A DNA stretch of 58,848 bases, filler included, from Jimgerdemannia flammicorona (lineage: Eukaryota): NCBI GenBank assembly GCA_003990765.1. It is 2 parts of 2 records of this genome, joined end to end, with 100 filler letters (N's around TTAATTAATTAA, not from the genome) between each part and the next. Parts side by side here need not be neighbours in the genome. Positions count along the whole stretch, not along the records: positions 1 to 29,387 come from RBNJ01000500.1; 1 more part is not named here. One strand, written 5' to 3'. Made by a program: the position numbers and the translations under genes. This document shows, piece by piece, positions 1 to 25,890 of this stretch. The first letter of the stretch is position 1. Every line of letters begins with the position of its first letter. The notes under the pieces were generated by a model that saw only the letters and a list, made by a program, of their open reading frames with translations, had not been told where the DNA came from and did not search any database.

Positions 1-3000
1 CATCCCCCAACCCTGCCACCAGCTATTTAAAATATCCAACAGCAACCATTCCCACCGTGCCACCCTTTCCCCAACCCCAACCTGACACCTGTCCTCAAAT
101 ACATATACCCAATGCCCCGCCAGCCCAACCTACATAGCCAAGGCCCAGCCAAGGGTCAGCCATTCATCCCCAACCCCTCCCACTAATCGCCAGCGAAGCT
201 CTCCCCATCTCCCCCCTCCCTCCCCTCTACCATCCCCCAACCCTACCCTGTCCATAATACATCTCCAGAACTCCCCCAAAACCTCACACTCACCAAGCCA
301 ATGTTCAGGCGTTTGTACCACTCCACCCTCCTGACCAATATTGAAACAATCCTCGTACTCAAATATCCCACCATCCACCAAGTGACCAGACTGAAAGTTC
401 AACATCACATTCCGCCATAGGATCCGCCACCACACCAACCAGAACTTGGGGGGCAGCCACTGCCTCACCCGTTTGCTCCAGAGCCAGAGTCCATTCCAAT
501 CCCACTCTTCCCCAATTCCAACCCTCTGCCAGGCTTCAGGCCACAGGTCTCCACCTAGGCCTCACAGACACTCCAGACCCTCGCCAAGCTGAAAGCCCTC
601 CACCAGAACACCACCCAATAGAAGCCTGTCCCATCTCCACATCTGTGGTCCCCAAACCTCCTTGGCCTCGTCACCTCGCCACTGAAGTCCAATTTTCTTA
701 GCACCATCTACCACTCCCCACCAAAATCCTGTAAACCACATCCTCTGGCTCCCTTCCATGGCCACCATTGCAAGCAGGTCACCAGAGCCACCATGTGGGG
801 AATATCGAACCTCCCACAACCTCTGCATGAGTGGCACTCACTCCCGACCTCTAAGCTCACTTGCCCTCCTTAGCCACCAGGCCTTCAGACATAGAAGCCA
901 TTTAGTAAAGTCCACTAAGCCCAGCCCACCTCTTTCCAAGGGCAGTGTGAGCACCTCCCAACCAATCTGGCTCCACCGCCCTCCCCAAATCTATGACCTC
1001 GCTATCTTCAACAACCCCTTAACCACCCAAGGTGGGAAATCCAAATGATATCCAACATACCACAGCTTTGGCATCCAGTACACATTCAACACCATCACCC
1101 TTCCGGCCAGGGACATATGCCAGCCTCCCCATCACATCAAGACATTACCCCACTCCAGCAGTTTATGGTCCCACTATGCCCAGGGGAGAAGAGATCTGAA
1201 TACCGAGAAGTAGATCCCCAAGTAGCACACTGGTTCACCAGCCAGAACCACCATACCAATAACATTGCTGCCAATAATTCCAGCACCCAGCACCAGTGTC
1301 TGGCATTTATGCCAGTTCAGTTTAGCACCAGAACCCTGCACATACCATTCCACCATCCTCTGTAACTCTCTAACATCCCCCAAGGAACCCAGCCCGACCA
1401 CCATATCATCGGCAAAGGCCCCCACCTTCCAGTTCACCCCTAAAATGTCCAAACCTCTAAACTTATGCCGAATCCTGTCCAGTAGTGGCTCCAGGGAAAG
1501 GGCATACAATATGGGTAACAAGGGGTCCCCTTGTGGCACCCCATGGCCCAGGGGGAAGGTCACCCCCCAGTGGCCATTGATGACCAGTGCCACCTGACTG
1601 TCCTCCAAGAGGCTGATTAATGAACCTCAGAACCCCAGGGGGATACCAATCCGCTTCAGCACTCCCTCCAGCCATATTCTCCACACTCTATTATAAGCCT
1701 TCTCCTGGTCCAGAAACACCAATCTACCATCCACCCCTGTAGCCTGGGCACCTTCAATCACTCCATGAACCCAGGCCATCCCATCTCGAATCAACTGACC
1801 ACCAACAAACCCACGTTGCTCCAAACCAAGCACCTGCTGAGCAATCACTTGCAACCTCATCACCAAGATTTTCGTCACCAATTTGTGGTCCATGTCCAGA
1901 AGCATAATTGGCTGCCAGTTCCTCCAATCCTCATGCCTGCCCTTGTTCTTATATAGCAAGGAGACTAGCCCTAAGTGCTGTCCCTCAATCCAGGCACCAG
2001 ACTGAAGAACTTCATCACACATAGCAATCATTTCCTCTAGCACCTCACTCACCCCTGTCATCTTCTGCCAAAAATCCCAGGGGAGACCATCCTCTCCCAG
2101 GGCTGTCCCTTTACTCGTAGAGGCCACCACCTTGCAAATCTCCTCACTGCTCACTGGGTCCCCCAATGCCCCAAGTCCCATCACAGGGTCTGGGTGCCAA
2201 TCCCCCAGCTGCCTTTCAATGTCCAGAGCATCCAGTCCCCCTTCATCCTCACTCCAAAGATTCCTCCACTGGGATCGCAATAGGCCCAAAATTGCTGGGG
2301 TCCCCACCACCAGCTCGTCATTCTCGTCCAAAACTCCCTCCCACCACTGCCTCGTTTGTCTTGCTTATAACAACTGTGACAAAAACCTGGTAGGTCTCTC
2401 CCCTTCCTCAAGCCCCTGCCATCGCAAGCGGGCCACCATCCCCTGCAACTGCTCCTCCTCCTCCCTTCTTAGCACCCCTTTGAGCTCCTCCATCTCCTGT
2501 CGGATTCTCGCAATATGCCAATCAGCCTCGGCCCTATTCTCCAGCACACCCACCCATCTCTCCATGAGCACTGCCAGACACCGTAAGGCCCACATCACCC
2601 ACCGCCTTTACTGGGCACTCTTTCCTTTCCCTGCTTCCCTCCAATACCCCTGAGCCTTCACCTTCAACCTTCTCCAGTGGTCCCCAATCGCCAGTCCTTG
2701 ATCCTGCCACCTGACAATATCTCCAACCACCTCTGTTTCCCAGCCCTCCCACAACACCCTATCCTCCAAATAGGAAGAATTTAGCCACCAATGTCTAGGC
2801 CCATCCTCCTTTCCCCCAAATCTCCCCCCTCCAAGCAACCCCCAATGATCAGACCATGGACACCATATGACTCCCAGCACCGTCCAGACATCTGCTCCCC
2901 AACACTCTGCTATTAGAACCCAGTCAATCCTAGAGCCCAGTCCTGCTGCCCAATGGGTGTACACCTGCCGATCAGCCCAAAAATGTCTCCCTGAGTCCAC

Positions 3001-3525
3001 TAAAGAACACAACCTTTCCATCTCCAACCAGTCTGCCAACCCACCACTTTCACCTCACATGCCTCTCCCTCCATCAGTTCTGTCCAACTCCTTATCCTAT
3101 ACCATGTTGAAGTCACCCCCCATACAGTCAAGCCCAACTTCTCCCAATAAACCAGCCTCTTTCAATCCACAAATCAAATCCACTCTCTCCCCTCTCTCAG
3201 CCAGCCAGTAATAAGATCCAACCATCAGCGAGCCCCATCCAGGCCTCTTCCACACTCCCCATACCACCCAAGACCCCCAATGTCCAATGTCCCCAATGTC
3301 CCCTATCCCTTTCTGAACAAGAATACCCACTTTCCCCCTCCAAACTGCTGCACCCCCCCATTCCTTAGTCCAATCCTGTAAATCCACATCTGCATCATAT
3401 CGAACATCCTATAACAAGAAGAGGTCCGCATCCAGACCCCGAAGCCAACCAAAGATGTACTTCCTCCTAGCCGCGCCCCGTAACCCATTAACGTTCAATG
3501 AGAATATCCTAGTTGTACTGTTCAT
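1..3525 (-). pseudogene. LINE-A ORF2 (APE endonuclease, reverse transcriptase, C-terminal zinc knuckle), broken by stops and frameshifts
   Basis: ATG at 3525 gives MNSTTRIFSLNVNGLRG. Motifs GGDFN, SRIDWVL, SDH, WWLNSS, EGERPTRF, GEDGLPWDFW, LDQEKAY, GVPQGDPL, AFADD and TPEHWLGEC occur in L1-clade order. Confidence 0.93.
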
Positions 3526-3529
3526 ATTG

Positions 3530-4404
3530 AATAGACATTGTAGAAGAGACCCCAACCTATAATTCCATACTCATCTCATCCCTCGCCAGGTCCAAGCGCC
3601 ACTCAGCTTCCAATTCATCCTCCAAAATATCCCGAGCATCCAGTGCCCCCAAGATTTCCTGACACTCCACTCTGTCCACCTCCTCCATATCTGCCTGGTA
3701 ATCCAAGCAGACTGCACATCACTTCTCTAGTCCCTTCCTTGAATTCCATAAGAAAAGTGCCCTGTCACTCACAATCCTTCTAAGTTCCTCCTCTTGCTGA
3801 TCATCAACCTGATACTCAACTGACTCCAGGAGGACAGCCAAGATCTCATTCCTCATCTTCCTTGGCACCTCTTTCCCATGTAGAATCTCCTCCCAATGCC
3901 TCTCTTCCATCACTCTAAAGTCCTCACCCCCCAGCTCTTCAGCCGCTACCCCTTCCAGGGTCTTCCACATCCACTTCTCCTCATCTACCACCTCTGCCAC
4001 CCCCTGAGCAATTTGACCCCCATCCACTTCAGGGTCCACCAGTGCACTCCTCCTCACTGACTCATCCCACTCCTCATCCGGCACATCCATCAGCTCCTCC
4101 TCGCCTTCTGCCCCATTTGGAACACTATACTGAGAGTGCCCACCTTCACCCATTTCGGCATCCACCTCCAAATTAACCTCCCTCCCCTCCCCGACTCCAA
4201 TCTGAGCCCTGCCCTGCGCCAACTCTCCCCCTTCAGCCCAGGTGCTCTCTTGCAACCCTGCAACCCCCTCCCCAGAACTTCCACCAGCCCTACCCCCACC
4301 CAACTTCGCCAACAACTCCTTCTGGATTCTCTTCCCCTGCATCTTCTCCCAGGCCCCCTTCTCCATGCGGACCTTCTTCCCATCTACCTCCCCCACTATC
4401 TTGA
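3530..4404 (-). pseudogene. LINE-A ORF1, C-terminal part
   Basis: ORF 3719-4396 is homologous to LINE-B ORF1: ELMDVPDEEWDE vs ELADVSKEEWDE, and EILAVLLESVEYQVD vs EILAILLEEEGYEVD. Confidence 0.8.
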
Positions 4405-7400
4405 GCCACTACATAGTTCTTCTTGTCTTGTTGTATGTGTTGGTTTCTCCTAAGTATCCTTGCTCATGTACTTCCTTCATTACTTGATACTTCTTGTATT
4501 CAGATATTACTAGCTTTTCTCCTTTTCTGAGTACAGTGTTGTCTAGTTCAAACTGTTTCCAAGTCCAGTTGATAATGGTGATTGTCCAGGGTTTGAGGTG
4601 GTTGGCCATCTTCCACAGCCTAAGATAGCTAATTAATCCATAGTATAGCTCCTTATTCATGTTGAATAATCTTGATGGGGGTGTTTCATGGTGTCCTTGA
4701 GAGTGCATCAGCATTGGTGTTGGTCTTTCCTGAGCAGTGCTTGACAGTACAGTCATACTCTTGCAGCCTGTATATCTATCTGACATATATTCCTTTGGGG
4801 TTCAGGGTGTGGAATAGCCAGGCAAGAGTGGAGTAGTCTGTTTGAATGGTGAAGTGTTTCCCAGCTAGATAGTAGTGGAACTTGTCTACTGCCCAACCAC
4901 TGCTAAGCATTCAAGCTTACATGACTCATAGTTCTGTTCTGCTCTGCGGGTACCTTGGCTTGCATAGGAGATGAGATATTCATATCTATCTATCTACTGA
5001 GCTAGAACTGCCCCAAGTCCTATAGCACTTGCATCTGTCTGCAGGATGAATTCTAGATTCCAATCTGGTCTTCTGAGGATAGGTGCTTGGGTCAATCTGG
5101 TCTTGAGTTCATTGAAGGTTTCTTGGTACTCCTTGGTCCATTCGAATTTGGTCTCCTTCTTCAGTAGCTCATAGATAGGTACTGCAATATTGGAGTATTC
5201 TTTGATAAATCTTCTGTAGTAGCTGGCCAGTCTAAGGAAGGCATGGACTTCTATAGTTGTTCTGGGTCTCGGGTAGACTGCAATAGCCTCAATCTTCATG
5301 GGGTCTGTGTGGATTCTGGTCTGGTTGATGAGGTGTCCTAGATAGGTGATTTCTTGAGCTGTAAACTTGCATTTCTTGGGCTTAATATAGAGGCCATACT
5401 CCTTGAGCTTCTTGAGGGCTAGCTGTATATGATTGACATGTTTCTGTGCTGTATTGCTGAAGATGATCACATCATCAACATAGACAAAGAGCCATTTTCC
5501 AATCTTATTACTGAAGACTCTGTTCATCATTCATTAGAAACTTACTGGGGCATTGCACATTCCAAATGATATTCGCAGGTAGATATAGGTGGCATTAGGT
5601 GTGATGAAGGCTGATTTCTCACTGGCATCTTGAGTGAGACCAATCTGATGGAAGCCTGAGAACAGATCCAAGGTGGTGTAGTATTTGGCTTTGCTTCCAA
5701 GAGTGGTAAGGATTTCTTGAATATTTGGCAAGAGCTGTCTATCCTTCTTGATGATGGCATTGAGCTTCCTGTAGTCAATGCAGAGTCTTAGTACAAACTC
5801 TCCAGGTTTGCTTCCTTTCTTTGGGGCAAGGACAATGGGTGAGGCCCAGGGGCTGATAGCTTGCTTGATGATTCTGGCTTCTTCCATTTCCTTGAGTTCT
5901 GCTCATAGCCACTCTCTATAGACAGGTGGTATGGGTCTGGCTTTCTGGTAGATGGGCTTGGTATCACCAGTGTCAACTTCATAGTAGTACTTGGGTTCTT
6001 GATTGTAGATATCCCTAAAGTCTATAGTAAGTACTTCTTCATTCTGGTGCAGGATCTTGAGAAGTTGTTCCTCCAGGGGAACATTTCTCCAATGGTATAT
6101 GTATGCTTGTTTTGGTTCTTGTCTTTCTTATATTCAAGTTCAGTAATCTTGGTGGCAGCATAGGCTCCTCTTCCAGTAGATCCAAAGCCTTGTTCTCCTC
6201 TCTTGGTCTTGATGAGTTCAATGGCTTCTATGATCTTGGGCTTCTTGATTTCATGGATCAGCATCTGGCCAATCCTGTCATGCTTCTTGACTTCGAAGGG
6301 GGTGGTGTGGTTGTGATTTCTAATTATGAGGAAGATCTTGCCAGTATAATCAGAGTTAATTACTCTTCCTTCAACTGAGATTTTACTTTTGGCCAGACTG
6401 CTCCTGGTCTTGATAATTTCAGTATGGTTTTCTGGCAGCTTGACTCCAATTCCAGTGCCAAGTAGGGTGGTGGTCTGTGGTTCAAGGGTAGCATCTTGAA
6501 TGCTGGCAAGGTCTATTCCTATGGATCCTTCAGCCTTGTATTCTGGAATCTTAGCTTCAAGTTGAAACTTCTTGATCTTGAGGGTGATGTCTGATTCTTG
6601 TTCCTCCGTGTTGTCACTGTCAGCTTGAAGCTCTGGGGGCTGGTCATCTTCTTTGGCTTTCCTTTTTGCTTCAGTGGCTTCTTGCTCATGTTTCTGTTAG
6701 TGGGTTTTCCTGACTTCACTGATATAGGAACAGCAGTTATTCAGGTGTTCAGAGCAGTACATCCTAGTACTATGGGGGCATCTTCCTTGAGGGGCATACC
6801 CATCGATGATCTTATTGTACCACTGCTCATCTGTGAGCTTGGGTGTTTTGTTCTTGTTCTTGTTCACTGAGTGCATAAAGACCTCTGTGTTCTCTTCATC
6901 TCCTTCCTCTATGTCTGATAGAACTCCCTTGTGGACATTGATAGAGACTTGTATCTTTCTTTCTCTATAGTTGATCTGCATCTTCTGGGCATTGAGGTCA
7001 ATGATGGCCTTGGCCTTATGAAGCCATTGGTTGCCAATGAGGATGTCATAGTTTGTGGTGCTTGTAATAATCACGTCTACTGAGATAGTAGCTCCTCCTA
7101 TCTTGATGGGGACTTCTCAGATTTGGCCTAGGGGGGTAGCTCATATACTATCTGCTATGATATAGACTATCTTGGTGGACTCTTCAATGTCCCAACCTAG
7201 GCAGTCAATTGCCTTCTTGCTTATGAGGCATCCTCCAGCACCAGTATCAATAATGGCATCAAAGATATAGTCTTCAATTTGATATGGGGTATAGGCTAAT
7301 GTTTTGCAATAGTCTTTGGATTCTTCACCTGAGTTCTCAGATTCTTCTTATGCATTGTGAGCTTCTACAATCTTATACTCTTGATTCTTGGCAGTAGTTG

Positions 7401-8800: not shown

Positions 8801-9454
8801 TGTCACATAGTAGTCACTGAGTCCTTCAAATACACCAGATTCTCTTCAAGGTGTATCTCTTAGACTAACTCAAGTTTGTTATAAGCAAGTTCTTATTGGA
8901 GTGCCTTCCCAAGATCTTATAGTCCTCAAACTTCTTATCTTTTACTGTCTTGTTATCTCTTAGATTGCTTGCAAGTTATTGTGTATAAGTGAAATAAGAA
9001 CTGAGGGAACAATATTATATACATTGTTGTATAGTGGGCATTGAGTCCTTCAAATATATCAGATTCTCTTCAAGATATATCTCTTAGACTAACTACAAGT
9101 TTGTTATAAGTAAGTTCTTATTGGAGTACCATCCTAAGGTCTTATAGTCCTCAAACTTCTTTTCTTTAGACTGTCTTGTTATCTCTTAGATTTCTTGTGT
9201 GGAATTGAGTGTAAGTGAACCAGAACTGAGGGGACTATATTATATACATTATCATATAGTAGGCATTGAGTCCGTCAAATATATCAGATTCTCTTCAAGG
9301 TATATCTCTTAGACTAACTACAAGTTTATTATAAGCAAGTTCTTATTAGAGTACCTTCCTAAGGTCTTATAGTCCTCAAACTTCTTATCTTTAAACTATC
9401 TTATTATCTCTTAGATTGCTTGTATAGAATTAAGTATAAGTGAACCAGAACTGA
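8801..9454. repeat. Tandem triplication of a 224-225 bp unit at the PBS-proximal (U5) end of the G1 LTR
   Basis: Units start at 8801, 9025 and 9250 (tgtcacatagtagtcactgagtcc / tgttgtatagtgggcattgagtcc / tatcatatagtaggcattgagtcc). Confidence 0.92.
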
Positions 9455-10042
9455 CTTTATTTCAGAGGAAATAAGAGGGATATTTATACAAAATATAATT
9501 TGATAATTGCTAAGATATAAAGCTAAATATAAATTCCATTAACTAAAACTACTAAGTTCCAGAGTCAGTACTGATGGTTGTACAGGTTCAGGATGCTAGT
9601 ATAATTCAGTGTTACATCAGAATACCAGTGCTGAAACAATTTTGCATCACCTCAGAATGCCAGTGCTGACATTATCTGTTATTACATCAAAATACTGATA
9701 CTGGCATTATCCAGTATAATAAAGAACTTAGAGCAGAAAGTTCAGGACCATGGGGGCTTCATCCTTATTATCAGAGGTCAGGATATCTTCGAAGGAGATG
9801 AGGTCTGTGAATTCATCATTTTTGCATGCTTCGATGTTATGCAGGATGATGTCATTGCTGATGATGTCATCATGTTCAGCAGTGGGAAGGAGGTCTTGAG
9901 CTCTCCAGTCTATGAGGTTCTCTTCTACAAAATAGGGGACAAATGTGGGGTCTTGGAGAGATCAAACCTGGATACTTAGGCCTTGGAATACCAAGATCAA
10001 TCTTTGCAGGAATTGGTCTGGGTTGTCTTGGAGGGTGGGGTG

Positions 10043-10537
10043 TCAGAAGTCTTCTACTTCATCACTATTGAGAGTGATAGTGGACTGGGCTTCTATAGCC
10101 ACCCTGGCTTCTAGTGAATTGATACAGTAGGATGATAGGTTCCTGAAATCTGAGACTCTAACATACTTCAAGTTGGGGATTGAGCATGGTGCTTGCCTGA
10201 AGATCTGATGAATCTTCTTAGCTGTCCTTGTTTCACATATATCCATAGAAGTGGTATCTTGTAGCTCTTGAGTGCTGGCCTGTGGGAACTCCTGGTAGAG
10301 GAGGTTTTCTATTTTGTACTTCTGCTATATTTGGAGACATTTAGTAGCAATGGTGATTCTTGTTTCCATTTCATGGCAATAGAGGATAAAGTGATAGAGA
10401 TCTGTAGTATCCAGGTTAACACTAGGAGTCCTTCTTGAGTGGGTCCTCATGGCTCTTCTGATGTCTTAGAACATTCTTTCCTCAACTGAGATGCCTTGGT
10501 TATTCCTTGACCTTGAGGTTTGGTGGGCAGCAGGCAT
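10043..10537 (-). pseudogene. Accessory ORF3 homologue within the putative U3 of the G1 LTR
   Basis: One frame reads MPAAHQTS...YHFILYCHEMETRI...TRTAKKIHQIFRQAPCSIPNLKYVRVSDF with two in-frame stops. The motif is shared with ORF3 of G2 and B. Confidence 0.6.
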
Positions 10538-10779: not shown

Positions 10780-11836
10780 ATATATAAGAGAACTGACTAC
10801 TTGTTAATAGAGAATATTTTTTATTAGTATATTGTCATCATCCTCAGATATAGTGTCTGGCTTTCTTAACTTTACAAAAGTATCTATAGGAGTACCAATA
10901 GACTTACATTTACTTATATTGAAAAATTTAAGAATTATTTAAGCATATATTACTTACAAGACATATATAGTATATATATTTCTATTATATAATAGATATC
11001 TCTAAAAGAATGGACTCATCATCTATATCTATCATCTTGAATTCTTAGTATAGGGCTTCTTTGACTTTATTAAACCTGTTCTTACTAATAATAATGATGA
11101 TATCATCTACTCATATATTGATAAATACTATATTACTATTATTATTATATTAGATATATATATAATTTTCTGTTTTATAATATGTGAATTCATTATTAAT
11201 AAGATATTTATCAATCCTATTATTCTATAACTATACTACTTATTTGATATCATATAGTCTCTTATACAATCTGTATATAAGCTCACTATTTTTATATCTT
11301 TATAATTGATAGATAATCTATATTATAATTCAGAAATACTATCTTTATATCTATTTGATAAATTTTGAGATTGTATACTATACTAATTGTAAGAAGTATC
11401 TCAAGTAAAGTAAGCTTGAATTCTGATGAAAATATTTCATTATAGTATATGTTATAATTCTGAGAGTATCTCTTAGTAATAAAACAAGCTTTATATCACT
11501 CTGTACTTTCATTACTCTTATGTTTGATTTTATAGACCCACTTTGATCTAATTAATTGGTGATTCAACAGAGAGATACTAAATTCTATATATTATTCTGA
11601 ATGAGTAAATTGTATTCTTTATCTATATTTCTTACTATCAGAGCTAGTTAGAGTTTTGTCATATATATTTAGCTCATCAGATGATATCACAATATATATA
11701 CATTTGTATACTTCTGTATAGCTCATATGATCTGTATATTACTATTATCTAGGGCTTACCGATATATTCTAATAATTTCCAAAATCAGAATGAGTTTCTC
11801 AATAAATATTAGAGCACTTTTGCTTATTCTTCATAG
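10780..11836 (-). mobile_element. Ty1/Copia remnant 1, RT segment, heavily AT-shifted
   Basis: Minus strand reads YKACFITKRYSQNYNIYYNEIFSS (about 11423-11495), a decayed YKARLVAKGYSQxxGIDYNETFSP, and I*VDDII (about 11095-11117). Confidence 0.8.
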
Positions 11837-12302
11837 TGTAATGTAGCAGATGCTTACTCTTGAAAGTACTTTGGATTTCTGTATCTTGAATACTTGATCT
11901 TCTCTGACTCCTCAGAGTCCTTGGGATGCAGGGGTGAATGAGTTCAAAGTGTATCTGCTTGCAGGCTTACTAGTTCCTTTGCTATCTCTTTGCTTTTGAA
12001 CTATTTCGATCTGAGGTTTATTCACTCTAAGATACTGGGTTATTTATACAAGTTTTGCTAACTATAAGGTGGCTAAGTAATGGCTTATTTCGCAAGTATT
12101 GAATCTTTTAACATCTGCTAAGATTTCACTAATTGCAAAGATTCTAACATCTCCTAAATCTTTGCAAATGTTAAAGTTTCTACACTTTGCAGAATATCGC
12201 TGCTATTTATAAGGCTAAGCTATATTGTGAATCAGATTCAGGTACTGCGATCAAATGTCTAATTCTCCTGTTTCATGTTACTAATTTGGATTGGCTGTCA
12301 TA
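11837..12302 (-). repeat. 3' LTR of G2
   Basis: Direct repeat of 18061-18514 with an 11-bp indel near the left end; abuts the PPT. Confidence 0.92.
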
Positions 12303-12343
12303 TCTCCCTCCTGAATAGGTAATTTGTCTCAGGAGCATCCTAT

Positions 12344-12760
12344 TCACTTGAATTCCCAGGCTTCTACAATTTGTATTTCCTTATACTGTGTGATTTGTGT
12401 CATTATGTCCTTCCAATATTGTCTCTTGACATATCCAAAGTCTCCTGGGGTTACTCCTCGAAAATGGGCTAAGGCTGACTTGTCGTCTTTGAATAACTTG
12501 TACACTCTTTTTGCAATTGTAATCTGAGTGTAGGAGAGCTGACATTCTCTGATCCAGTCTTCTTTTCCCATCTTTGGTCTTGAATTCAGTAGCTGTCCCA
12601 ACTTGAAGTATTCCTGGAACTCGGTTCAGTTCTGGTAGGTCTTGAAATGTGAGATTTGTGACAAGTGTGTTTGCACTATACTCTGGATGCTGTCAAAGGA
12701 TTCTTCTATTGTTGGTGGCTCAGTGGAACACCACTGTCTTTCAATGGCTTACTGGGCCAT
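12344..12760 (-). pseudogene. G2 accessory ORF3 (138 codons) between integrase and PPT
   Basis: Own ATG at 12760 in a frame different from integrase. Reads MAQ*AIERQW...QEYFKLGQLL...ITIAKRVYKLFKDDKSALAHFRGVTPGDF...WEFK* with two in-frame stops. Confidence 0.7.
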
Positions 12761-12761
12761 A

Positions 12762-15700
12762 CTAGTAATTCTGAGGGCAGCAGTATTACTTTGTTAACTG
12801 GTCATGATACTTCTTGAGCTGGTTTTGGTAGATGGTAGTGGGGATAATTGTGCCTGAGAGTTTTCATAGCCAAAAGGTGGTTCCTTTTATATCTTGCACA
12901 AGGTAAGGTCCTTCCCACTTGGGCTCCAGTTTTCATGACCATGAGGCTTCTACCATATTCTGATACACCAGGACTTTGTCTCCTATTTTGATAATCTCCA
13001 GGGGTTTGTGGGTTTTTTCCACATTCTTCCATTGTAATTCCTGTGCCTTCATTATGTAATCCTCAGCCTTCTTTCTGATTTGGTATAGTCTCTATATTTC
13101 TCTATCCACATGTTTCCATACAGCATCCTCATTGGATGATAGGGTTTCTTGAGAGCTTTCTTCTCCAAACAGCATTTCTCGAGAGGTAAAGTAGGTACTT
13201 TGTGATCTGATATCTCGGAGAGCAGATAATGCTATTGGCAGATAGTGATCCCAGTTTTCATAGTTATTGCAGATCTTGGCAATAACATTCTTGAGAGTCT
13301 TGTTGGTCCTTTCAGCTTGTCCATTTCCTTAAGGGTGATAGGCTGTAGTCTGAATGTACTGGATCTTGTACTTCTTGTAGAGAACCTCAAAGAACTGGTT
13401 CATGAATTCTGTTCCTCTATCTGTAGTTACTTTCATTAGGGTCTTGAACTGACAGATGATTTCTTTGTGGAAGAAATCGGTAATTGACTGTACATTGGCT
13501 TCCTTGAGGAGTCCTGCTTCTATCCACTTCATAAAAAGGTCTACGATGACAATGATATATCAGTTACCAGTCAGGGTCAAGGGTAGAGGGCCAATTTCAT
13601 CCATTGCTATGTGGGCAAATGGTACTGGTTCTATATGTACCGATTCTGGGGCTTGGTTTTGTTGGTCTTGTTTCTGTTTCTGGCATTTGTCACAGTTTTT
13701 GGCAAATTGTCTGATATCTTTCTCCATTCCTGGCCACCATATTGTTCTTCTTGCCTTGTCATATGAATTCATTCCTCCTAGATGGCCAAGTTCATATACT
13801 GATTTCATTGCTTGCTCCTTTTTGTATTCTGGTATGACTAGTAGATTTTCTTTCTTCAGTATTTATCCATCAGTTTTGAATTGTTTCCATGTTCTGTTGA
13901 TAATCATTTGTGTCCATTCTTTCAGATGTTGGGGCATCTTTTGCTGTCCCAGATATGTGATGATTCCATAGTAGAGCTCCTTATTCATAATTGATTTATT
14001 GGTTGGAGATGTTTTGAGGTGTCCATGAGAGAGCATCTGCATTGGAATTTGTTCTTCCAGGGTAGTGTACAATGGTTATATTATAGGCTTGTAACTTCAT
14101 TTTCCATCTGGTGTAGATTCCTTTGGGTTGTCCAGTTATTAGTAGCCAAGTGAGAGCTGAGTGGTCCATCTGAATGGTGAAGTGTCTTCCAGCCAGATAG
14201 TAGTGGAACTTTTCCACAGCCCAGATAGCTGTGAGGCATTCCAACTTGTAGGATTCGTATTCTTTTTCAGCTCCTCAGATTCCATGGCAAAGGTATGCAA
14301 TGTCATACTCTTTTTTGTCTTTCTTTTGAGCTAGAACTGCTCCTAGTCCTTGTGCACTTGCATCTGTCTGAAGGATAAACTCTTGAGTCCAATTGGGTTG
14401 TCTGAGGATGGGTGCCTGGGTCAGTCTGACCTTGAGTTCATCAAATGCTTTTTGTTGTCTACCAGTCCAGTTGAATTTAGTGTCCTTCTTGTTGAGTTTA
14501 TAGATTAGACCTGCAATATTGGAGAATCCTCTAATAAATCTGCAATAGTAGGAGGCGAGTCCCATGAAGGCTTAGGCTTCTGTAATGGTGGTGGGCCTTG
14601 GGTATGCTGCTACTGCTTGTATCTTGAGGGGGTCCATGTGCATTCTGTCTCAATTGATAACATGGCCAAGGTAGGAGATCTTGATTTCTGCAAATTTGCA
14701 TTTCTTGGACTTGATATACAGGCCATGCTTTCTCAGTCTTTTTATTATCTGCCATATATACTGTAGGTGTTCCTCAGGTATCTTGCTGTAGATGATTATG
14801 TCATTGACATAGACCATCATCCATCTTCTCATGTCATAGTGGAAGATTTTGTTCATCATTTGCTGAAAGCTTGCTGGTGCATTGCACATCCCAAACAGCA
14901 TTCATAGGTAGATGTAGGTTCTATCTGGGGTGATGAAGGCTGACTTTTCACTTGTCATCTCTGTGAGTCTAATTTGGTGGAATCCTGAGTATAAGTCCAA
15001 GGTGCTGTAGTACTGTGTTTCGTCTCCCAGTATTATAAGGATGTCACTGATGAGGGGCAGTGGTTGGCAATCCTTCTTCGTAACTGCATTGAGCTTTCTA
15101 TAGTTGATACAGAGTCTTGGGGCGAATTCTCCAGGTTTGCTTCCTTTTTTCAGGGCTAATACAACTGATGAAGACCAGGGGCTGCTGGCTTCTTTGATAA
15201 TACTGGCTTCTTCCATCTGCTTGATTTCTTCTCTAAGCCATTCTCAGTAGGCTGATGGGACAGGTCTTGCCTTCTGGTAAATTGGTTCAGTGTCTCTGGT
15301 ATCTACCTCATGATAGTAGTGTGGGGTCTTTCCCTTGATATCCTTGAAATCTGTGGCAAGGACATCCTTGAATTCGTGGACTATTTTCTTGAGTTCCTCC
15401 TTGAGTGGAAATTCATTTCCAATGGTGTAACTGTGCTTGTTTGTGATTTCCTCCTTCTTATACTCCAGTTCAGTGATCTTGGTACTGGCGAATACTCCTC
15501 TTCCTGTGGATCTGAATTCTTTCTTTCCTCTTTTTGTTTCCTCCAAATTCTTGACTTCTATGATCCTTGATTGTAGGATTGGAAAGATCAACATCTGTGC
15601 CAATCGGTCCTTCTTCTTGACCAGGAATGGGATTATAGGATTGTGATTCCTAGCAATGAGCAGGATTTCTCCAGTATAGTCAGAATCGATGACTCCTCCT

Positions 15701-17945
15701 TTAATCGTAATTTCACTTCTGGCCAGGCTGCTTCTTGTCTTAAGGATCCCAACATGATCCTTTGGGATAGTCATCTCTAGTTCAGGGTGGTTGTTTGGGG
15801 TTCTAGTACAGCTTCTTCTACTGTGGCAATGTCCATTCCAGCTGTGTTTTCTGACTTGTATTCTGGCAAGACTGCATCAGGGTGGGTCCTTCAAATCTTG
15901 ACCTTAATTTCTTCTTCATCATCACTATTCTCCAGGAGAGCTGGTAGTTCATCATCTTCCTCCTACTTCTCTTTTCTGACCTGTTTTTCAAGAGCTTTCT
16001 GTCTTCTTTCCTGGTGGATTTTCTTGATTCTGATGGTGCACTGGTAGCAATCATTGACATGCTCTATATAGTACATCTTGATCCCATCTGAACAGACTCC
16101 TTGTGGTATATAGCCTTCTGTGATCTTCTTACACCATTCTTCTTTGCTCATCCATCCAACTTTCTTCTTCAGAGTAGTCACCATATAAGCTTCCTCTTGC
16201 TTGCTCTCTTCTTCCTCTATGTCAGGCAAGACTCCTTTGTTGACATTGATGGGAATTCATATCTTTTGTCCCCAGTAGGTGATTTGCATCTTCTGGGCAT
16301 TGAGATCAATTACTGCTCTGGCTTTGTGAAGCCATGAGGATGTCATACTTGGTGGCATTGGTTATGATTACATCTACTGGGATGATTGCTCCTCTAATCT
16401 TAATGGGAACTTCTCAGATCTTTCCCAGAGGGGTGGCTCTTGTACCATCTGCTGTGACAAAAACCAACTTGGTTGCTTCTTCAACTTCCCAGCCTAGGCA
16501 GTCTGCTGCTTTTTTGCTGAGGAGACATCCTCCTGCTCCAGTATCGATGATGGCTTCGAAGACTCTATCTTCGATTTGGCATATTGTATAGGCAGAGGTT
16601 TTGCAATTGTTTTCATTTTCTTCTCCTGAGTCCTCTTGAATGTTATTGGCCTTGGTTATCTTCCATCCTTGCTCCTTGGTTTTTTTTGGCAAGTCCGAAC
16701 CTCATTTGTTGTCTGAATGTTGGGATTTCTGTGAGCTGACTAAAGGTTGTATTGACCTTTTGTTGGCTAATGTCCTTGAAGATATCATACTTGAAAGTCT
16801 TGGTCTTGTGAAGTTTCTTTTCTTTTTCTCCTTTGCTGGCTAGGGTAGTTCCTCAGATAATATCTTAAACTGCTTGCTCCAGCTCTATATCTTGGTCCAT
16901 CTCTTTGGCTTGGCTTTTGGTGGCCATTTCCATCTGCTTTTCTACTGGGTTCTTCTTGGGTCTTCCTGGTGGTCTCTTGTAGGGTTCCTTGTGAACATTC
17001 TTCTTAGTAGTCTGAGCAGGATAGGCCTCTCATTCTTCTTCATCAGAATCTCCAATTTCCTCAAAGGTAATTGTATTGGCCTGCTCTTTGTTTCATATAG
17101 CATTGCTTGGTTGAGCCTTGTACTTGATTTCACTCATGTATTCATAGGAGTAGTGGCCCTCTTCTCTGCAGGTGTAGCAGATACCTTTCTTCTTATCCGA
17201 GGTGGCAACAAATTTCTAAACTAGGCAGCAGTTTCTTCCTTGGATTTCTTTTACCACATCTCCCAGGTGGGCAGTCATTTCAGTGAACCTCTTGGCAAGT
17301 TCCTCCATAGGGTCACTGTTCTTTTGCTGCTCTATAGTTTTTGGCTGAGGTGTGTTTCAATTGATCATTGTAGTAGGGATCATACTGGTTGCCTTAGGCA
17401 TTTCGATTTTGACTCCTGTGACTCTTTCCATTGTATGGTCTTGTGGGTGTCTGGCTGTCCAATATCACTGAGCATAGGTGACCTTCTGTGAGATCCAAGA
17501 CTACTAGTGATGAATGGATGGCCATGGCTATCTGGGTGAACTTCTTTCATGAAGGTTGCTTCGGCTACTTAATCTCGGATAGCAGTAGCATAATCTGCGA
17601 GGATTATCTGATATCGAATTCTGGTATAGAATGTGTTTGGATCCTCACTCATTCCTTGGTATGTTATGTTGAGCTGATCCTTCAGGGCTTACTTGATTTC
17701 ATCTGTATATTATGTATTTCAGAGCCAGGTCTTCTGTGCTGTCAGTATAGCATCAGTATCATTTCCTGCATGGGTTGTGGCTATGAATGCTGCTCTGGCA
17801 GGACCTTGTAGGCTGAAGAGCATGAGAGCTACTTGCTGTGCTGCTGTCAGGGTCCTTACAGTGGCATACTGCTCAAAATCATCAATGAAGATAATGATTG
17901 ATTCATCTGAGGTATACCTGTGGAATACTGGTGATCTCATATTCA
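12762..17945 (-). pseudogene. G2 gag-pol
   Basis: Gag SPVFHRY..FIDDFEQY. PR AIIDTGAGG. RT LCINYRKLN, LDLYSGFHQI, YVND. RH LQTDAS. IN GHLG..CDKCQ, PFAHIAMD, TDRGTEF, TTAYHP and a GPY motif. Confidence 0.93.
15505..15905 (-). pseudogene. dut: dUTPase domain of G2, between protease and RT
   Basis: TAGMDI, KTRSSLA, GGVIDSDYTGEI, DRLAQML, RGKKEFRSTG. Confidence 0.93.
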
Positions 17946-18060: not shown

Positions 18061-18514
18061 TGTAACATACTCTTGAAAGTACATCGGATTTCTGTATCTT
18101 GAATACTTGATCTTCTCTGACTCCTCGGAGTCCTTGGGATGCAGGGGTGGATGAGTTCGAAGTGTATCTGCCTGCAGCTTACTAGTTCCTTTGCTATCTC
18201 TTTGCTTTTGAACTATTTCAATCTGAGGTTTATTCACTCTAAGATACTGGGTTATTTATACAATTTTTGCTAACTATAAGGTGGCTAAGTAATGACTTAT
18301 TTCACAAGTGTTGAATCTTTTAACATTTGCTAAGATTTCGCTGATTGCAAAGATTCTAACATCTCCTAAATCTTTGCAAACATTAAAGTTTCTGCACTTT
18401 GTGGAATATAGCTGCTATTTATGAGGCTAAGCTATATTGGGAATCGGATTCAGGTACCACAATCAAATGTCTAATTCCCCTGTTTCATGTTACTAATTTG
18501 GATTGGCTGTTATA
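18061..18514 (-). repeat. 5' LTR of G2
   Basis: TGTAACA...TGTTATA termini; repeat of 11837-12302; PBS adjacent. Confidence 0.93.
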
Positions 18515-20269: not shown

Positions 20270-20430
20270 ATTTCTCAAATGCTCACCAGAATGCTTTATT
20301 TTCTATATATGCATTATAAAAGTATCCTCTAGATATATATATATTAGTAATTCTTTTACTGAGCTACTTTGGATCATCCTTCTGAGACTCAATTTACTGA
20401 TATCCTAAGTATTGATACTATATATTAGAT

Positions 20431-20665
20431 CAATTTTTTTGCCATAATGTCGATCTATGCTAAGGAGGCATAACTATACTACATTTTGCATAATATCAAC
20501 TATGCTATGCTCACATGATGTCAATCTTCATGATAAAAAACACCGATAACCCTGTGTCACCAAAATGACCATGCATCACCCCGAAATCCTAGGAAAGAAA
20601 CCTCAAATAAATGATCAATTGTTCTGTATTTGGGTGGAAACACATGGTATAAAAGATCGGCCCAA
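20431..20665 (-). repeat. Ngaro split direct repeat B2
   Basis: 235-bp direct repeat of 20947-21181. Confidence 0.93.
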
Positions 20666-20699
20666 CCACTATATATATATATGTAGGGTGAGGTGGGTG

Positions 20700-20946
20700 G
20701 TAATGAAATGCATATGAATATATGGAAGCACAAAAGCATAAATATAAAGTGCGTATGAAGTAATGTTGAGTGAATGGTAGAATTATATATAGAAGTAATG
20801 CGCACACTGCGCTAGTACCAAAAAAGGAGACTACACCTGATTTAGAAATGCCTTAGACAAACAACGGCATTGAAACATTTTGGGTGCTATATGCCCAAGA
20901 CCTTCCTGCATTCATTGACCTGTGGTCTCGAGTGAGCCCCCTTATT
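20700..20946 (-). repeat. Ngaro split direct repeat A2
   Basis: 247-bp direct repeat of 25891-26137. Confidence 0.93.
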
Positions 20947-21181
20947 CAATGTTTTTGCCGTAATGTTGATCTACGCTAAGGAGGCGTAACTATACTATGT
21001 TTTGCATAATATCAACTATACTATGCTCATGTGATGTCAATCTTCATGATAAAAAACACCAATAACCCCGTATCACCAAAATGACCATGCATCACCCCGA
21101 AATCCTAGGAAAGAAACCTCAAATAAATGATCGATTGTTCTGTATTTGGGTGGAAACACATGGTATAAAAGACCGGCCCAA
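20947..21181 (-). repeat. Ngaro split direct repeat B1
   Basis: Direct repeat of 20431-20665; directly abuts A2. Confidence 0.93.
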
Positions 21182-21361
21182 ATGTTATATGTAAAATGTG
21201 CAGAATGATGATGTGTAGCAGTGTGAGTTGGCAGTACCAAAAGAAAGAACTCGGCCCAAAAGAAGTAAAAGGGGGGTTATGGATGTGGAAATGTGAGCAG
21301 AGTAGAAGATAGAAAGGTGCCGAAGGCTTAATAGAAAGGCCGCGCCCAATATCAATGATAT

Positions 21362-21726
21362 GGCTGATGTCGCGAGCCATGTAGTTAAAACCGAGGGCAG
21401 GTGTCGCAAATCGTGTGAAAGCCAAGAAGCTGATTTAATGAGCCCAGTGATCGAGGGATAGAACTGGTGTCACAAGTTGCGCAGGGGTCCGAGTAGGCTG
21501 GTGTCACGAGCTGCGCAATAATAAAAAGAAGGAGGGCTGGTGTCGCAAGCCATGCAATATCAGAAAAGGTTGGTATCGCGAACTACATGGTGGCAAGAGG
21601 CTGAGGTGGGTAGATTAAAGGCTGGTGTCGCGAGCCATGCGGTGATGTAAGACCGATGAGGAGAGGTAAAGGCTGGTGTCACGTGCCGCGCAGGACCCAG
21701 AATAAGCTGGTGTCGCGGGCTATGTA
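21362..21726. repeat. Array of nine 22-bp direct repeats (consensus about GGCTGGTGTCGCGAGCCGCGCA) separated by unrelated 11-44 bp spacers
   Basis: Copies start at 21362, 21396, 21462, 21496, 21535, 21568, 21620, 21671 and 21705. Confidence 0.88.
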
Positions 21727-21752
21727 GTAGAAAAAGAGGAATGGGAAAATTG

Positions 21753-22816
21753 TTAACCGCAAGTAATATGAGTAGCAGAACAAGTATTACAAGTTAACAA
21801 AGCCTGAAGGTGGAGAATGCAAAAAATAGGCATGTGAATATAGCCTTTATATGCCACGCTCTCCCACCAATCCAATATCTGAATCTCGTAATCAGATAAG
21901 CCGGCTGCAGCGGCATTGGATGTTGCACCAATCTGAAAACTATGCCCAGCATAAAGAAGCAGATTCAGACCAATCCGTGGAAGTACCATGCAAAGATAAC
22001 TAATGAGATAGGCCCAAGAGAATGATCAATTTGTGGAATGCCAGAACAGAGGGGTGTCGGGTGGGGCTGGGTGTGCCAGGTAAAGAAGGCAAAGTAAGGA
22101 TACAATGCATGGTGTGGTGGAATCCATTTTGGCGATAAAAAGTGATGCACCCTGGCGAAACGGGTCTGTTTTAGAGGCCGGCAGGGTGAGCATAATATGG
22201 GTGGGGTCACAATGCTAGGTTGAAAGACCACAGAGCCACGGGACAGCTGGGAGATGGGATCGAAAGACCCGTCTCATGTAAATTCGCCAGAGCAAAGAAA
22301 ACTGACATATGCAAGCAACATTGCGGTCGCAAGATGTAGATCATCATAATCAGATAGCCGAAGCAGACTGATAAGACTGCGAAGAATATCAAGCATGATA
22401 GGAAGCCGAGGTCAAGTTGGGCATATGCCTAGCCACTGCTTCATGCCACACATCACTCAGGGAAGTTGGTGAAGACTGATGAATGGATTGGCAAAGCCGG
22501 AGTTGATGTATAGAGAACAAACAGCCGAGAGGTAATGTTTGATTGTGGATGGTTGAAGCTATCGCAAGGCTAAGCTACAGATCCACTGCATTAGCACCAG
22601 TTCGGATGCAGGCAAAGGCCTGCCAGAGGCATTATTACCATCATGGAGATTGCAGAATTGGAGGAAGCTGTGTTGTCCTGAAGAGTATGAGCGGCACATT
22701 GATTTTGCCAGTCTGAACCACAAAAAGAAGACAATGATGGGTGGAAGCATGGAATGCAAATGATACCAATCGCGGTTGGGAGCATCTGAGCATAGGGGGC
22801 AAGATGACGGAAACAA
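21753..22816 (-). pseudogene. Tyrosine recombinase of the Ngaro element, frameshifted
   Basis: N-terminal RSYSSGQHSFLQFC..PLPASELVLMQWI. C-terminal YAGHSFQIGATSNAAAAGLSDYEIQILDWWESVAYKGYI matches HSFRxGAA...GRWxSxAY. Overlaps the end of RNase H. Confidence 0.92.
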
Positions 22817-24267
22817 GGAAGATCAGCATGGGATAAAGCATCAGCAATGCTATTATCGGACATCGAGATGAATATGGCATGAAGTTGAAAAGCGTGATGC
22901 GCCATTTAAAAATAGAGCTAGCGAAGAAGTTCCAGCAGAAGAGGGTTGCATGAAGAGCCTGAGTTGATAATAGCGACAACTACCTGATTATCAGAATGAA
23001 GCAATATACAGTGAAAATGCCATTGAGCACCCCAGGTAGTAGTGGCAGTGACCATGGCATAAAGTTCCTTGAACTGAATATCGCGCGAGGCTATATCAGG
23101 AGGCCAGGGAGCAGAAAACCATTCGCTATTGAAATGTGCACCAAAGCCTTGGATCCTGCTGGCATCTGTCCATAATTGTGCATCAGGCTCATAGAACCAT
23201 GCCACCAGATGTATAATGGAAATACCATTCCAGTGGGGTAGGAATTTGAGCCACCAACAAATATCAGTGTAGAATTCCTCATTCAGTGAGATATGGAATG
23301 AGGCGTTGCCAGAAAGAAGGTCAATAAACTGCTGCAGGAATGGGCAGCCTGGCAGAATGATTTTATAGGCAAATGCCAAGGAACCAATAAGAGACTGCAG
23401 TTGAGGGTGTGTATATAGCATACGCGATAGCCACTGCTGAAGAGTGGCGAGCAATGTGTCAAGCTTGCCGAGAGACAGGCAGGCTTCCATAGTCATTGTA
23501 TCCAATTCGATGCCCAGAAAGACAAGTGAGGTTGTCGGGCCTTTGATCTTGCACTCTTGAATCGACCAGCTGAGATGACGACAGATGGCAAGAAGTAAAT
23601 GTAGGTTGGAGAGGGCAAATGGCCAGAATGGCAGCGAAACAAGGAGGAAATTGTCGATATAGTAGATGAGCATGCATATGTCATGATGGTGGGTGATCCA
23701 TGCAAGAAGCTCTGCAAAAAGGTTGAAAAGAAATGGTGATGAGGATGCGCCAAAAGGAGTGAACCGATCGAAATAAAACTGCCCTGACCACTCAAAACCC
23801 AGCAACTCCCAATCCATAGAATGGATGAGAATATGATGATATGCATTAGCGAGGTCAACCTTTGATAGAAGACATCCCTGGCCAAAATGATGAACCAAGT
23901 CCAAAGCCTCGTCGAACTTAATGTAAGAGAGCTGGAAGGCATTGGTATCTATACCGGCATTCACCGAATCGCCATGACGGGGCCAAGAAAGGTCATGAAT
24001 ACAACACCATGCACTATTAGAATTCTTCTTCACGATGGTACCAAGAGGAGATGAGCAAAAGCATTCGAACCGAGGGGATGAGAATGGGCCACAAATTCTA
24101 CCAGCGGTGACTTTCCGCTCGATGTCAGACGTGATCGCTTCTGGGTGGTCGAGAGCGGAGCGATGATTGTAGGACAGCAGGTGCCAATGAGGTCCATCAA
24201 AGCCGAGAAGAGCACCTTGAGTAATAGCAGCGATGGCAGCCTGAGCTACTTGTAGGTCAAGATACAA
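22800..24267 (-). pseudogene. Ngaro RT/RNase H; a 449-aa stretch is still open but catalytic YxDD reads YIDN
   Basis: SSPLGTIVKK, IHDLSWP, KVDLANAYHHI, PFGASSSP, YYIDNF, FLGIELD, WTDAS, KELYAM, SDNQ, NSIADALS. Confidence 0.94.
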
Positions 24268-24432
24268 CTGGAGCTCATGTGCCCACGCAACAGGGCAAAG
24301 AGCAGAAGAAGGAAGAGGAAAATAATGTAGAATGTCTTGAGCAGCTTCGTTAAGAGGAGTGGTAAATGGGCGACAGAGTAGGGTATTTGGAGCAGCCAGG
24401 GGTATGTGTAAAGAATAAATGGGGGCAAGTTC

Positions 24433-25635
24433 CTAGGGGCGAGACGATGGATTGTGGGAGCATCGATACCACAGATGATCACCATTGCAGTGAGAACAGA
24501 AATGCGTATAAGAGCATCCTTTTCTGTTGCACCCAGGATTCTTCATGGGTGATCCATCGAATAGAATGCCATTGTATGCCCAACAAGTAGACCATTGAGA
24601 GGCATTCCTAGAAGATGGAGCGGAGGAGCCATCAGTAAGACATAGCCCCCATTGTATGTTGCAAGACTTGAAGGGCTTAAGTGGATTAGATGTAGAGGTC
24701 GGAGTTCGCAGACATTGATGTAGACTAAGGATCATAAAGAGATCGGGGTCATGCCATGCCCAATGCTTGCACCATACCAAAGAAACACCATTGTTCGCGA
24801 TCTCCGCCAGTCGTTTTGTGTGAAAGGAGACATAATAATCAAGAAGCATGGACCAATACGACGACGTTGATAGTAAAATAAAATCCGCAGCATATGAAAA
24901 GAATGGAGTAGGATCGGTGAGGCCCAGGTACACATCATGAAGAACGCTGAAATACATAAGCAGGGTGGCGAGGAAAGCAGGGACGTCTGGAAGATCTTTG
25001 ATAAGGGATGGTGGCTTTCAAAGAATGATCCGAGCACCCGATTCGTCAAACATTTCGATGAATTGAGCATCAGGAAGACCACCGATAGAAACAACATTTC
25101 ACTCCAAGAAACAGCTGAGTGATATGGCAGTGAACAAATTGTTGATGACCATAGCCAATAGCCATTAATTAACATGGGCATATTTTAAAGAGAGATTGAT
25201 GCCTTGGACAATAGTATGGGCAGAGACGACAGAAGGAGGTATAGGGATAGACTCACCCTGGAGATTACTGACAGGGCCATGAATGCCAGTGGACTGAACC
25301 AAAGGGATAGTCGGTAAGGGCTGGGATGAGGATGGGGATGTGACAACCGCCAAAAGAGAGGCAGTAGCATGATCGATAAAGGCTTGATTGATGATGAGAG
25401 ACGCATCCTGACCAGAAATGGCAGGAACTGTACTAGCTGGTGCCGCTGAAGATACAATGTTGGGGCGAGAGCGTAAAAGCTGAAAAAGTTCATCGAACCA
25501 ACGATCTTGTGTGGATGCATGCTCTTGGAGCTGAGTAATGCTGGCTTTGATGGAAACATCAGAGGCCGGTGTGCTGAAAAAAACTGGTCCAGCTGCCATA
25601 GCACTAGCGGGAGCCTTGGATGCGGTACATGCCAA
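24433..25635 (-). pseudogene. Ngaro ORF1 (gag-like) with C-terminal Cys/His fingers
   Basis: ORFs 25165-25635 and 24433-24957. The C-terminus CWAYN...CNRKGCSYTHFCSHCNGDHLWYRC is typical of DIRS/Ngaro ORF1. Confidence 0.8.
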
Positions 25636-25890
25636 TAGATGTGTGATTCAGCAGGGTGTAGAAGTAGAGTGATCAGGGAGGATGGCAAGATAATCCACAA
25701 GGATAGCAACATTAGGGTTCTCGCTATCAGATTCCAGGTCGTCTTGCAGAAAGCAGAGCATACACTTGATGAAATTGACGTCCAAGTGGAAAGGGCAGGC
25801 GGCAGAGCCCAGGTTGTGTTGGCCCTTCGACATATGGGAAGGGTCATATCGACACAAAAGGCAAGAATTTGTGGAGAGGACCATGGTAAT

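Follow-up and report, generated by a model that had tools for sequence, protein, structure and literature searches.

Introduction

Extra genes beyond gag and pol turn simple retroelements into "complex" ones, and among the accessory proteins of LTR retrotransposons other than Env, very few have a known role. The regulators Tas/Bel1 of foamy virus, Tax of human T-lymphotropic virus (HTLV) and Rev/Tat of lentiviruses belong to vertebrate retroviruses and are produced from multiply spliced mRNAs. Among long terminal repeat (LTR) retrotransposons, the Gypsy-type element Cer1 of C. elegans encodes CERV, a non-env regulator described as needed for export of the genomic RNA (PMC10309623). Elements with a dUTPase between protease (PR) and reverse transcriptase (RT) are reported from basidiomycetes and, as Juno, Vesta and TelKA, from bdelloid rotifers (PMC5408684). 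In a survey of fungal Gypsy elements, a figure legend lists an additional open reading frame (ORF) of unknown function in some elements (PMC2864245). Here we analysed ORF3, a frame located downstream of pol in dUTPase-containing Gypsy elements of Jimgerdemannia flammicorona (assembly GCA_003990765.1). The stretch under study, hereafter the window, is 58,848 nt of eukaryotic repeat DNA in which the elements were delimited by self-comparison.

ORF3 is very probably a genuine accessory gene, translated separately, that belongs to one Gypsy clade, in which pol has the order PR, dUTPase, RT, RNase H (RH) and integrase (IN) and there is no chromodomain. Its product constitutes a new protein family; non-env ORF3s of LTR retroelements are already known as a feature class. 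The protein is predicted to be soluble and all-helical, with about 150–270 amino acids (aa).

Position and state of the ORF3 copies

Two elements of the window, G2 and B, both lie on the minus strand according to self-BLAST, and Pfam detected protease, dUTPase, reverse transcriptase, RNase H and integrase in this order in each of them. Domain order and flanking LTR pairs identify both as dUTPase-containing Gypsy/Ty3 LTR retrotransposons (Table 1). No chromodomain was found by Pfam, the integrase ending after its GPY/F module. In a third element, G1, dUTPase was also detected by Pfam, and the pol of G1 shares about 71% DNA identity with that of G2. G1 and G2 have a common primer-binding sequence, from which B alone differs. 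Thus, the initial annotation, according to which ORF3 is kept across elements using different tRNA primers, was right for B versus G1 and G2 but not for G1 versus G2.

We searched the window in six frames with a family profile built from an alignment (A6) that included close relatives of the G2, B and G1 copies in the window but not these copies themselves. Exactly four ORF3 matches were obtained, each of them on the minus strand; after these, the best match had an independent E-value (iE) of 0.27. For G2, B and the related metagenomic element L001 described below, ORF3 was established to lie between integrase and the polypurine tract with its 3' LTR. In these three elements the conserved ORF3 ATG overlaps the last pol codons, and ORF3 ends 30–40 nt before the polypurine tract. 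In G2 the ATG (12805–12803) overlaps the end of pol, whose stop codon is at 12788–12786; the ORF3 stop codon occupies 12344–12346, the polypurine tract follows about 32 nt downstream and the LTR is directly next. The ATG of B ORF3 (40807–40805) is located 14 nt ahead of the pol stop codon (40793–40791), and the layout toward the polypurine tract and LTR matches that of G2. The env position proposed in the initial annotation is therefore confirmed for G2 and B by their layout, together with the four profile matches. Its interval for G2 ORF3 (12344–12760) had the correct stop end, but the start is 12805, where the ATG aligns with those of intact relatives.

The G1-type copy had been placed at 10043–10537. 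It is indeed homologous, but the reading continues past the TGA at 10043 to 9728, like that of intact relatives of 247 and 271 aa. Moreover, it does not belong to the G1 gag-pol, because it is located upstream of the LTR that precedes G1 gag and no integrase match was found upstream of it (tblastn, E ≤ 1e-3). This copy represents the 3' terminus of a neighbouring element, truncated or in tandem.

ORF3 had been taken to be an open frame in each element. All four window copies are in fact pseudogenes with in-frame stops (three in G2, five in B, four in G1 and six in the G2-family fragment); the full-length copies (G2, B and G1) are broken by stops only, without frameshifts. The four copies are dead, inactivated by transition mutations. 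Nearly all differences between repeat copies are transitions (B LTRs, 123 of 127; G2 LTRs, 24 of 28; G2 at 12220–13001 versus the fragment, 149 of 187). They are often in a CpA/TpG context, and the observed/expected ratio of CpG is 0.11–0.14, falling to 0.00 in the fragment. This pattern looks like repeat-induced point mutation or deamination of methylated cytosine and points to a fungal host.

Intact relatives and purifying selection

Intact relatives were sought by a word-indexed search of 5.8 billion proteins. For the G2 type, 12 of 15 candidates were accepted as relatives (66–87% identity), as were 7 of 28 for the B type (48–81%) and 2 of 13 for the G1 type (68–80%). The intact ORF3s, found in public metagenome protein sets, encode 153, 171 and 247–271 aa, and full-length relatives have a single conserved start methionine in each type. 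The nine clusters that we inspected contained only JGI/IMG or ENA sequences on contigs of at most 4.8 kb, annotated as "hypothetical protein" or nameless. Viral contig scans with one distant relative (P0028) and with the B alignment gave no relative. A second metagenome locus (L002; 31% identity over 53 residues) was rejected as a chance match, since by eye it has cellular-looking long ORFs, none of which covers the match.

L001, a JGI metagenome contig of 6479 nt, is a nearly intact element of the G2 family and is about 75% identical to G2 of the window throughout. Its ORF3 (5795–6253, 153 aa) is open throughout; the start lies 44 nt ahead of the pol stop codon, in a different frame, and about 30 nt separate the end of ORF3 from the polypurine tract and LTR. 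The defects of L001 are an in-frame stop in gag (771–773), a frame change at the RH/IN junction (about 4504–4619) and a stop in integrase (5074–5076). The U3 of L001 (6399–6479) contains a perfect array of 4.5 copies of an 18-bp unit with an AGATCT palindrome and runs into the contig end.

Selection was evaluated by Nei-Gojobori counts on the L001–G2 alignment, using the 136 codons of ORF3 outside the pol overlap. The proportions of nonsynonymous and synonymous differences were pN 0.124 and pS 0.722 (pN/pS 0.17), and the corresponding rate ratio dN/dS was 0.055 (bootstrap 0.03–0.15), a value that is rough because dS is saturated and that was obtained for the G2 type only. For gag, PR, dUTPase, RT, RH and IN, pN/pS was 0.15–0.35 in the same comparison. 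Reading the ORF3 DNA in its two alternative frames gave dN/dS of 0.86 and 2.4, and pol segments read in a wrong frame, an unplanned control, gave 0.77–1.14. The constraint on ORF3 is frame-specific and represents purifying selection, as the initial annotation had supposed. Since ORF3 has been kept intact by evolution, it probably helps the element to control or spread itself.

The G1, G2 and B types very probably form one family

The intact G2-type protein P0002 matched the G1 copy in BLASTP (E 3e-6, 23% identity over 112 columns), and profile-profile comparison with hhalign linked the two types with E 3.2e-5 (probability 73%). The assignment of B is harder. The B type gave no pairwise BLASTP match to G1 or G2, and hhalign returned E 4.9e-4 (32%) for G2–B and E 0.022 (2%) for B–G1, the latter speaking against homology of B. 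A hidden Markov model (HMM) of G1 and G2 was also run against 1,835,955,588 representative proteins. It gave 11 hits at E ≤ 1e-3, each from a short JGI/IMG or ENA contig, including the distant members P0023, P0024 and P0026–P0029; B-type proteins were absent from these hits, which is a further point against placing B in the family.

When the G1+G2 profile was widened by the distant members, it matched the B alignment with E 1.4e-5, probability 80% and a score of 42.7 over 52 columns. The matched columns comprise a helix with Y-x-I-G, a linker and a T-A-x-R-I-Y-x-L-F block. Among 200 column shuffles of the B alignment none reached this score (mean 11.9, standard deviation 2.2, maximum 22.0), and the reversed alignment scored 11.1. 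The similarity among types asserted in the initial annotation is thus borne out by the G2–G1 comparison and by that of G1+G2 with B. The sequences that it quoted are present in the window, and the pattern it had picked out also holds: conservation in the alignments is highest in the TxAx[RK]x[YH]x[LI][FY] block and in the V/I..DF (written VxxxDF there) that comes later. The aromatic helix it described is also shared, except that the alignments give QKYKIENLL and not FILYCHEME as the G1 counterpart. The motif had further been likened to an RARKIYKLF-type domain amplified in Glomeromycota proteomes. This likeness found no support: no large family appeared among the 1.84 billion proteins, in which the 11 hits were all that was found, although HMMER may miss distant relatives.

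The AlphaFold2 model of P0002 had a mean predicted local distance difference test (pLDDT) of 53.6 with G2-type rows only and of 89.8 with all types aligned, with a predicted template modelling score (pTM) of 0.80. This rise fits a coherent family. We consider it highly likely that B ORF3 is homologous to the ORF3 of G1 and G2. The core of ORF3 is about 21% identical between B and the G2 family. As the B and G2-family integrases are only 35% identical, the simplest history suggested by these sequences would be a single ORF3 in the common ancestor of the dUTPase clade, evolving faster than pol.

Predicted structure and database searches

The initial annotation had argued that ORF3 is not Env. 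The maximum Kyte-Doolittle mean over 19 residues was at most 1.03 in all seven intact relatives, giving no membrane segment, and no signal-like start was seen in them. Hydropathy, the all-helical soluble model and the lack of a match to any env family in Pfam rule out the Env reading.

In the P0002 model, helices are predicted at residues 2–22, 40–75, 81–88, 92–105, 109–114, 120–125 and 128–151. Helix 81–88, a three-residue turn and helix 92–105, which carries the conserved motif, look in this model like a helix-turn-helix (HTH) in their proportions. The C-terminal ends are acidic and contain aromatic residues. Over the final 30 residues, 11 of the 12 relatives tested have a net charge between −2 and −13, and P0029 has one of 0. 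The G1-type proteins (P0020–P0024 and P0026) have 105–190 extra residues after the core. This extension, which is missing from the G2 and B types, comprises a conserved NPILQDNPDQ(F/W)LQ block and an acidic region, and in several of the proteins it ends in LNFLL.

Homodimer prediction gave a score of 0.49, against 0.00 for the best control, and so passed the mark that the tool sets for a dimer. This mark was reached by 21 of 30 microbial proteins solved as same-chain pairs and by none of 23 solved as single chains; among eukaryotic proteins, 17 of 29 such pairs reached it but 0 of 30 single chains. The homodimer runs agreed in at least 94% of contacts, with a partner pLDDT of at least 66, and the predicted interface is an antiparallel pairing of helix 40–76. 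These models support a predicted self-association of ORF3.

ORF3 matched no described domain. In a scan of 15 members at E up to 1, no Pfam family reached its threshold, the best match to PDB sequences had E 0.27, and PHROGs and NCBIfam returned nothing usable; a known Gypsy domain, which the initial annotation had named as a refuting outcome, did not emerge. Its other two refuting outcomes, a lack of significant profile-profile similarity and a dN/dS near 1, are contradicted by the values given above. Foldseek against PDB and BFVD gave no match at E ≤ 0.001, and a second VIA pass over 978 chains gave a best Z of 3.4. Leads to DUF3102 and HTH_3 from BFVD and from Atlas feature neighbours were dropped, being without sequence support in the Pfam scan. 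Duplication of the element's own gag or pol was likewise rejected (BLASTP best E 0.51; best A6 profile score 3.9 bits). A description of the ORF3 protein did not turn up in full-text literature searches. The family is absent from curated domain libraries and named proteomes, probably because of repeat masking.

Possible function of ORF3

A tentative mechanism can be drawn from the model, which we favour while giving it less than an even chance. ORF3 would be a dimeric HTH-like nucleic-acid binder with an acidic tail that recruits host factors, and it would regulate or activate expression of its own element, like the small regulators of complex retroviruses. The functions put forward in the initial annotation, a nucleic-acid-binding regulator or an anti-silencing factor, are likewise inferred. 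The long helix (about residues 40–75 of the 153-aa form) would pair two copies in antiparallel orientation, the HTH-like dimer would bind nucleic acid of its own element, most simply the LTR U3 repeats, and the acidic tail with its aromatic residues would recruit host machinery. Weak leads toward this mechanism are the alignment of ParB-type HTH domains described below, the HTH_3 and DUF3102 clusters among the Atlas feature neighbours, and the tandem repeats of the LTRs, including the 18-bp array of L001. ORF3 could be expressed from a spliced subgenomic mRNA or by reinitiation at the pol stop. In the most specific form of this idea, which is somewhat unlikely, the elements would be "complex" LTR retrotransposons whose ORF3 is a dimeric, sequence-specific transactivator of their own LTR repeats acting through the acidic-aromatic tail.

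Several observations weigh against this mechanism. The only HTH match in Pfam, HTH_Tnp_Mu_2, had a best E of 0.031, was found in 2 of 15 members and was below the family threshold. In VIA, run over 48,161 chains, the highest Z was 4.5 and no chain reached 5; a Z of 4.5 is below the usual chance scores of helical models. As there is no structural neighbour at Z 5, the HTH reading is drawn entirely from the helix lengths and the motif pattern, and most of the conserved positions in the motif are hydrophobic, which may simply reflect core packing. The overall isoelectric point of 4.5–6.8, neutral to acidic, is unusual for DNA binders. The dimer result was obtained from a model without alignment, on a predicted chain. 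Tandem repeats are common in LTRs and give no pointer to ORF3, and the ratio that indicates selection is limited by a saturated pS of 0.72. Nucleic-acid binding, expression and activity of ORF3 are themselves predictions.

Other functions were weighed against a regulator of expression. An RNA adaptor, which would bind the unspliced genomic RNA and promote its nuclear export or packaging like CERV of Cer1 or lentiviral Rev, is unlikely to be the answer, even though ORF3 has the same kind of position, being a small gene other than env that an LTR retroelement carries at its 3' end. Export of the genomic RNA requires CERV, which is made from a spliced mRNA (PMC10309623); for ORF3 there was no splice evidence, and the public sequencing runs for the G2 element comprised a single soil-metagenome DNA run (0.13 of words) and no RNA run. 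By eye, the G1 type has an N-terminal arginine-rich RRAMRTRSRR and its conserved hydrophobic LNFLL end might be an export signal, but G2 and B lack both. Predicted self-association fits RNA-coating regulators, whereas the proteins are acidic overall. The acidic tails could instead indicate a counter-defence factor, possibly a DNA mimic, that would block silencing, repeat-induced mutation or, alongside dUTPase, uracil excision from the cDNA. The host genome does mutate repeats by transitions, as the B LTRs and the CpG depletion given above illustrate, and the family is uncommon and its sequence changes faster than that of integrase (about 21% identity in the core versus 35%), as expected of host-conflict genes. 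We nevertheless regard such a factor as improbable: the pN/pS of 0.17 between L001 and G2 indicates purifying selection and gives no hint of positive selection, mutation reached every window copy in any case, and known inhibitors were unmatched in Pfam and PDB, PADLOC not having been searched.

A factor that tethers the pre-integration complex to chromatin or a host protein, and so replaces the chromodomain, appears just as improbable. It would agree with an integrase that ends right after the GPY/F module and with an ORF3 that abuts and overlaps the integrase end, and short acidic-aromatic ends are typical docking peptides. Many Gypsy lineages, however, have neither chromodomain nor ORF3, and no known tethering domain was detected in Pfam or PDB sequences. 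Finally, ORF3 might be no gene at all but a chance frame, or a sequence with a cis-acting RNA or DNA role beside the polypurine tract. The stops in all four window copies and the lack of a listed RNA run for the G2 element would suit this, yet it is largely refuted and now very hard to credit, since constraint is confined to the coding frame (dN/dS 0.055, versus 0.86 and 2.4 out of frame), the start methionine is conserved, intact ORFs persist at 48–87% identity and the merged alignment yields a confident fold.

Should ORF3 turn out to regulate the expression of LTRs, the export of RNA or the defence of the host, a handle would be gained on how elements control themselves in repeat-rich, mutation-prone genomes, and the known small helical domains would be joined by a new one. 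Under the transactivator form of the favoured mechanism, a Tas/Tax-like circuit would have evolved outside vertebrate retroviruses, on a fold without a solved relative.

Other features of the window

The features of the ORF3-bearing elements are listed in Table 1. G1 gag-pol spans from about 8740 down to about 4406, where its integrase is interrupted by a GC-rich non-LTR element. A second G1 LTR is absent from the window, which leaves the start of the G1 LTR unplaced. Tandem repeats occur in the LTR before G1 gag (8803–9454, 2.9 copies of 225 bp) and in the B LTR (39138–39308, 2.2 copies of 79 bp).

Table 1 Coordinates of ORF3 copies and associated element features in the window.
Feature	Position	Strand	Profile match (iE)	Remarks
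G2 ORF3	12344-12805	-	12362-12805 (8.6e-54)	153 codons + stop; pseudogene, 3 in-frame stops; 114/153 residues identical to L001 ORF3
B ORF3	40292-40807	-	40295-40807 (2.1e-47)	171 codons + stop; pseudogene, 5 in-frame stops; 78% identical to intact P0013
G1-type ORF3	9728-10537	-	10004-10498 (1.2e-39)	about 270 codons; pseudogene, 4 in-frame stops; homologous core and C-terminal acidic extension
ORF3 remnant, G2-family fragment	28049-28393	-	28049-28393 (1.9e-22)	heavily mutated; 6 in-frame stops in matched stretch and frame change upstream
G2 3' LTR	11855-12302	-		self-BLAST partner 18068-18514, 93.5% identity over 448 nt
G2 polypurine tract	12303-12312	-		AGGAGGGAGA type, directly before 3' LTR; read from the sequence; L001 layout alike
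G2 integrase	12765-14096	-		directly upstream of ORF3; tblastn with L001 integrase, 77.9% and 68.4% identity; Pfam rve, Integrase_H2C2
G2 dUTPase domain	15244-15876	-		between protease and reverse transcriptase; Pfam PF00692, E 6e-18
G2 5' LTR	18068-18514	-		followed by primer-binding sequence TGGTGCCCATTAGCTGG
G2-family fragment	27904-28683			75.7% identical to G2
B 3' LTR	38860-40251	-		self-BLAST partner 48238-49629, 90.9% identity over 1393 nt
B G-rich polypurine tract	about 40256-40262	-		read from the sequence

The GC-rich non-LTR retrotransposon is present in two copies (1–4408 and about 29700–32725) that are 72–77% identical and have an RVT_1 domain; it has 53% GC and a strong strand skew. 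The region between the G2 3' LTR and the G1-type ORF3 fragment (10790–11850) is very AT-rich, with about 25–32% GC, and contains remnants that by eye resemble a Copia-type polymerase. A further retroelement, non-Gypsy-like, occupies 20430–26137 and includes a 504-aa open frame (22918–24432, minus strand) with RVT_1. It is flanked by repeats at 20430–20665/20946–21181 (93.6% identity) and 20700–20946/25891–26137 (88.7%). The segments 35525–38821 and 53569–56876 form a repeat pair of about 3.3 kb with 79% identity and shorter flanking matches. Two runs of 44 N are located at 29388–29431 and 29444–29487.

Comparison with known systems

A close likeness in overall architecture is that to the rotifer elements Juno, Vesta and TelKA (PMC5408684), which have a dUTPase between PR and RT, a GPY/F integrase without chromodomain and a lineage-specific ORF3 after pol. 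Those ORF3s differ among the elements, being described there as a paramyxovirus-like fusion protein, small transmembrane proteins, a GDSL esterase or a DEDDy exonuclease. Here, ORF3 has no membrane segment and no Pfam match. It is common to element types whose integrases are only 35% identical. Among fungal elements, PosPlaTy3-5 of Postia placenta resembles G2 and B in its PR-dUTPase-RT order (PMC2864245). The additional ORF of that survey might be a member of the ORF3 family, or might occur in elements other than those with a dUTPase.

On the structural side, the matches repeatedly include ParB-type HTH domains (VirB, 3vwb; SopB, 3mkw; KorB, 8qa8), to which residues 60–153 of the full-chain ORF3 model align over 76–90 residues. 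This is a weak lead: the Z scores of 3.1–3.6 and root mean square deviations of 4.1–5.3 Å are within the noise range of the tool for helical models, and there is no sequence match.

Like ORF3, CERV is a small non-envelope protein of an LTR retrotransposon that belongs to no earlier-known family and is encoded beside gag and pol. CERV is regulatory and self-assembles, and self-association is predicted for ORF3. CERV differs in being nematode-specific, translated from a spliced mRNA and phosphorylated, and in that its part in export has been shown (PMC10309623). The resemblance of ORF3 to the regulators of complex retroviruses may be read as a functional analogy only, with no claim of homology: both would be small, 3'-encoded proteins that self-associate and combine a nucleic-acid-binding part with an acidic or effector tail.

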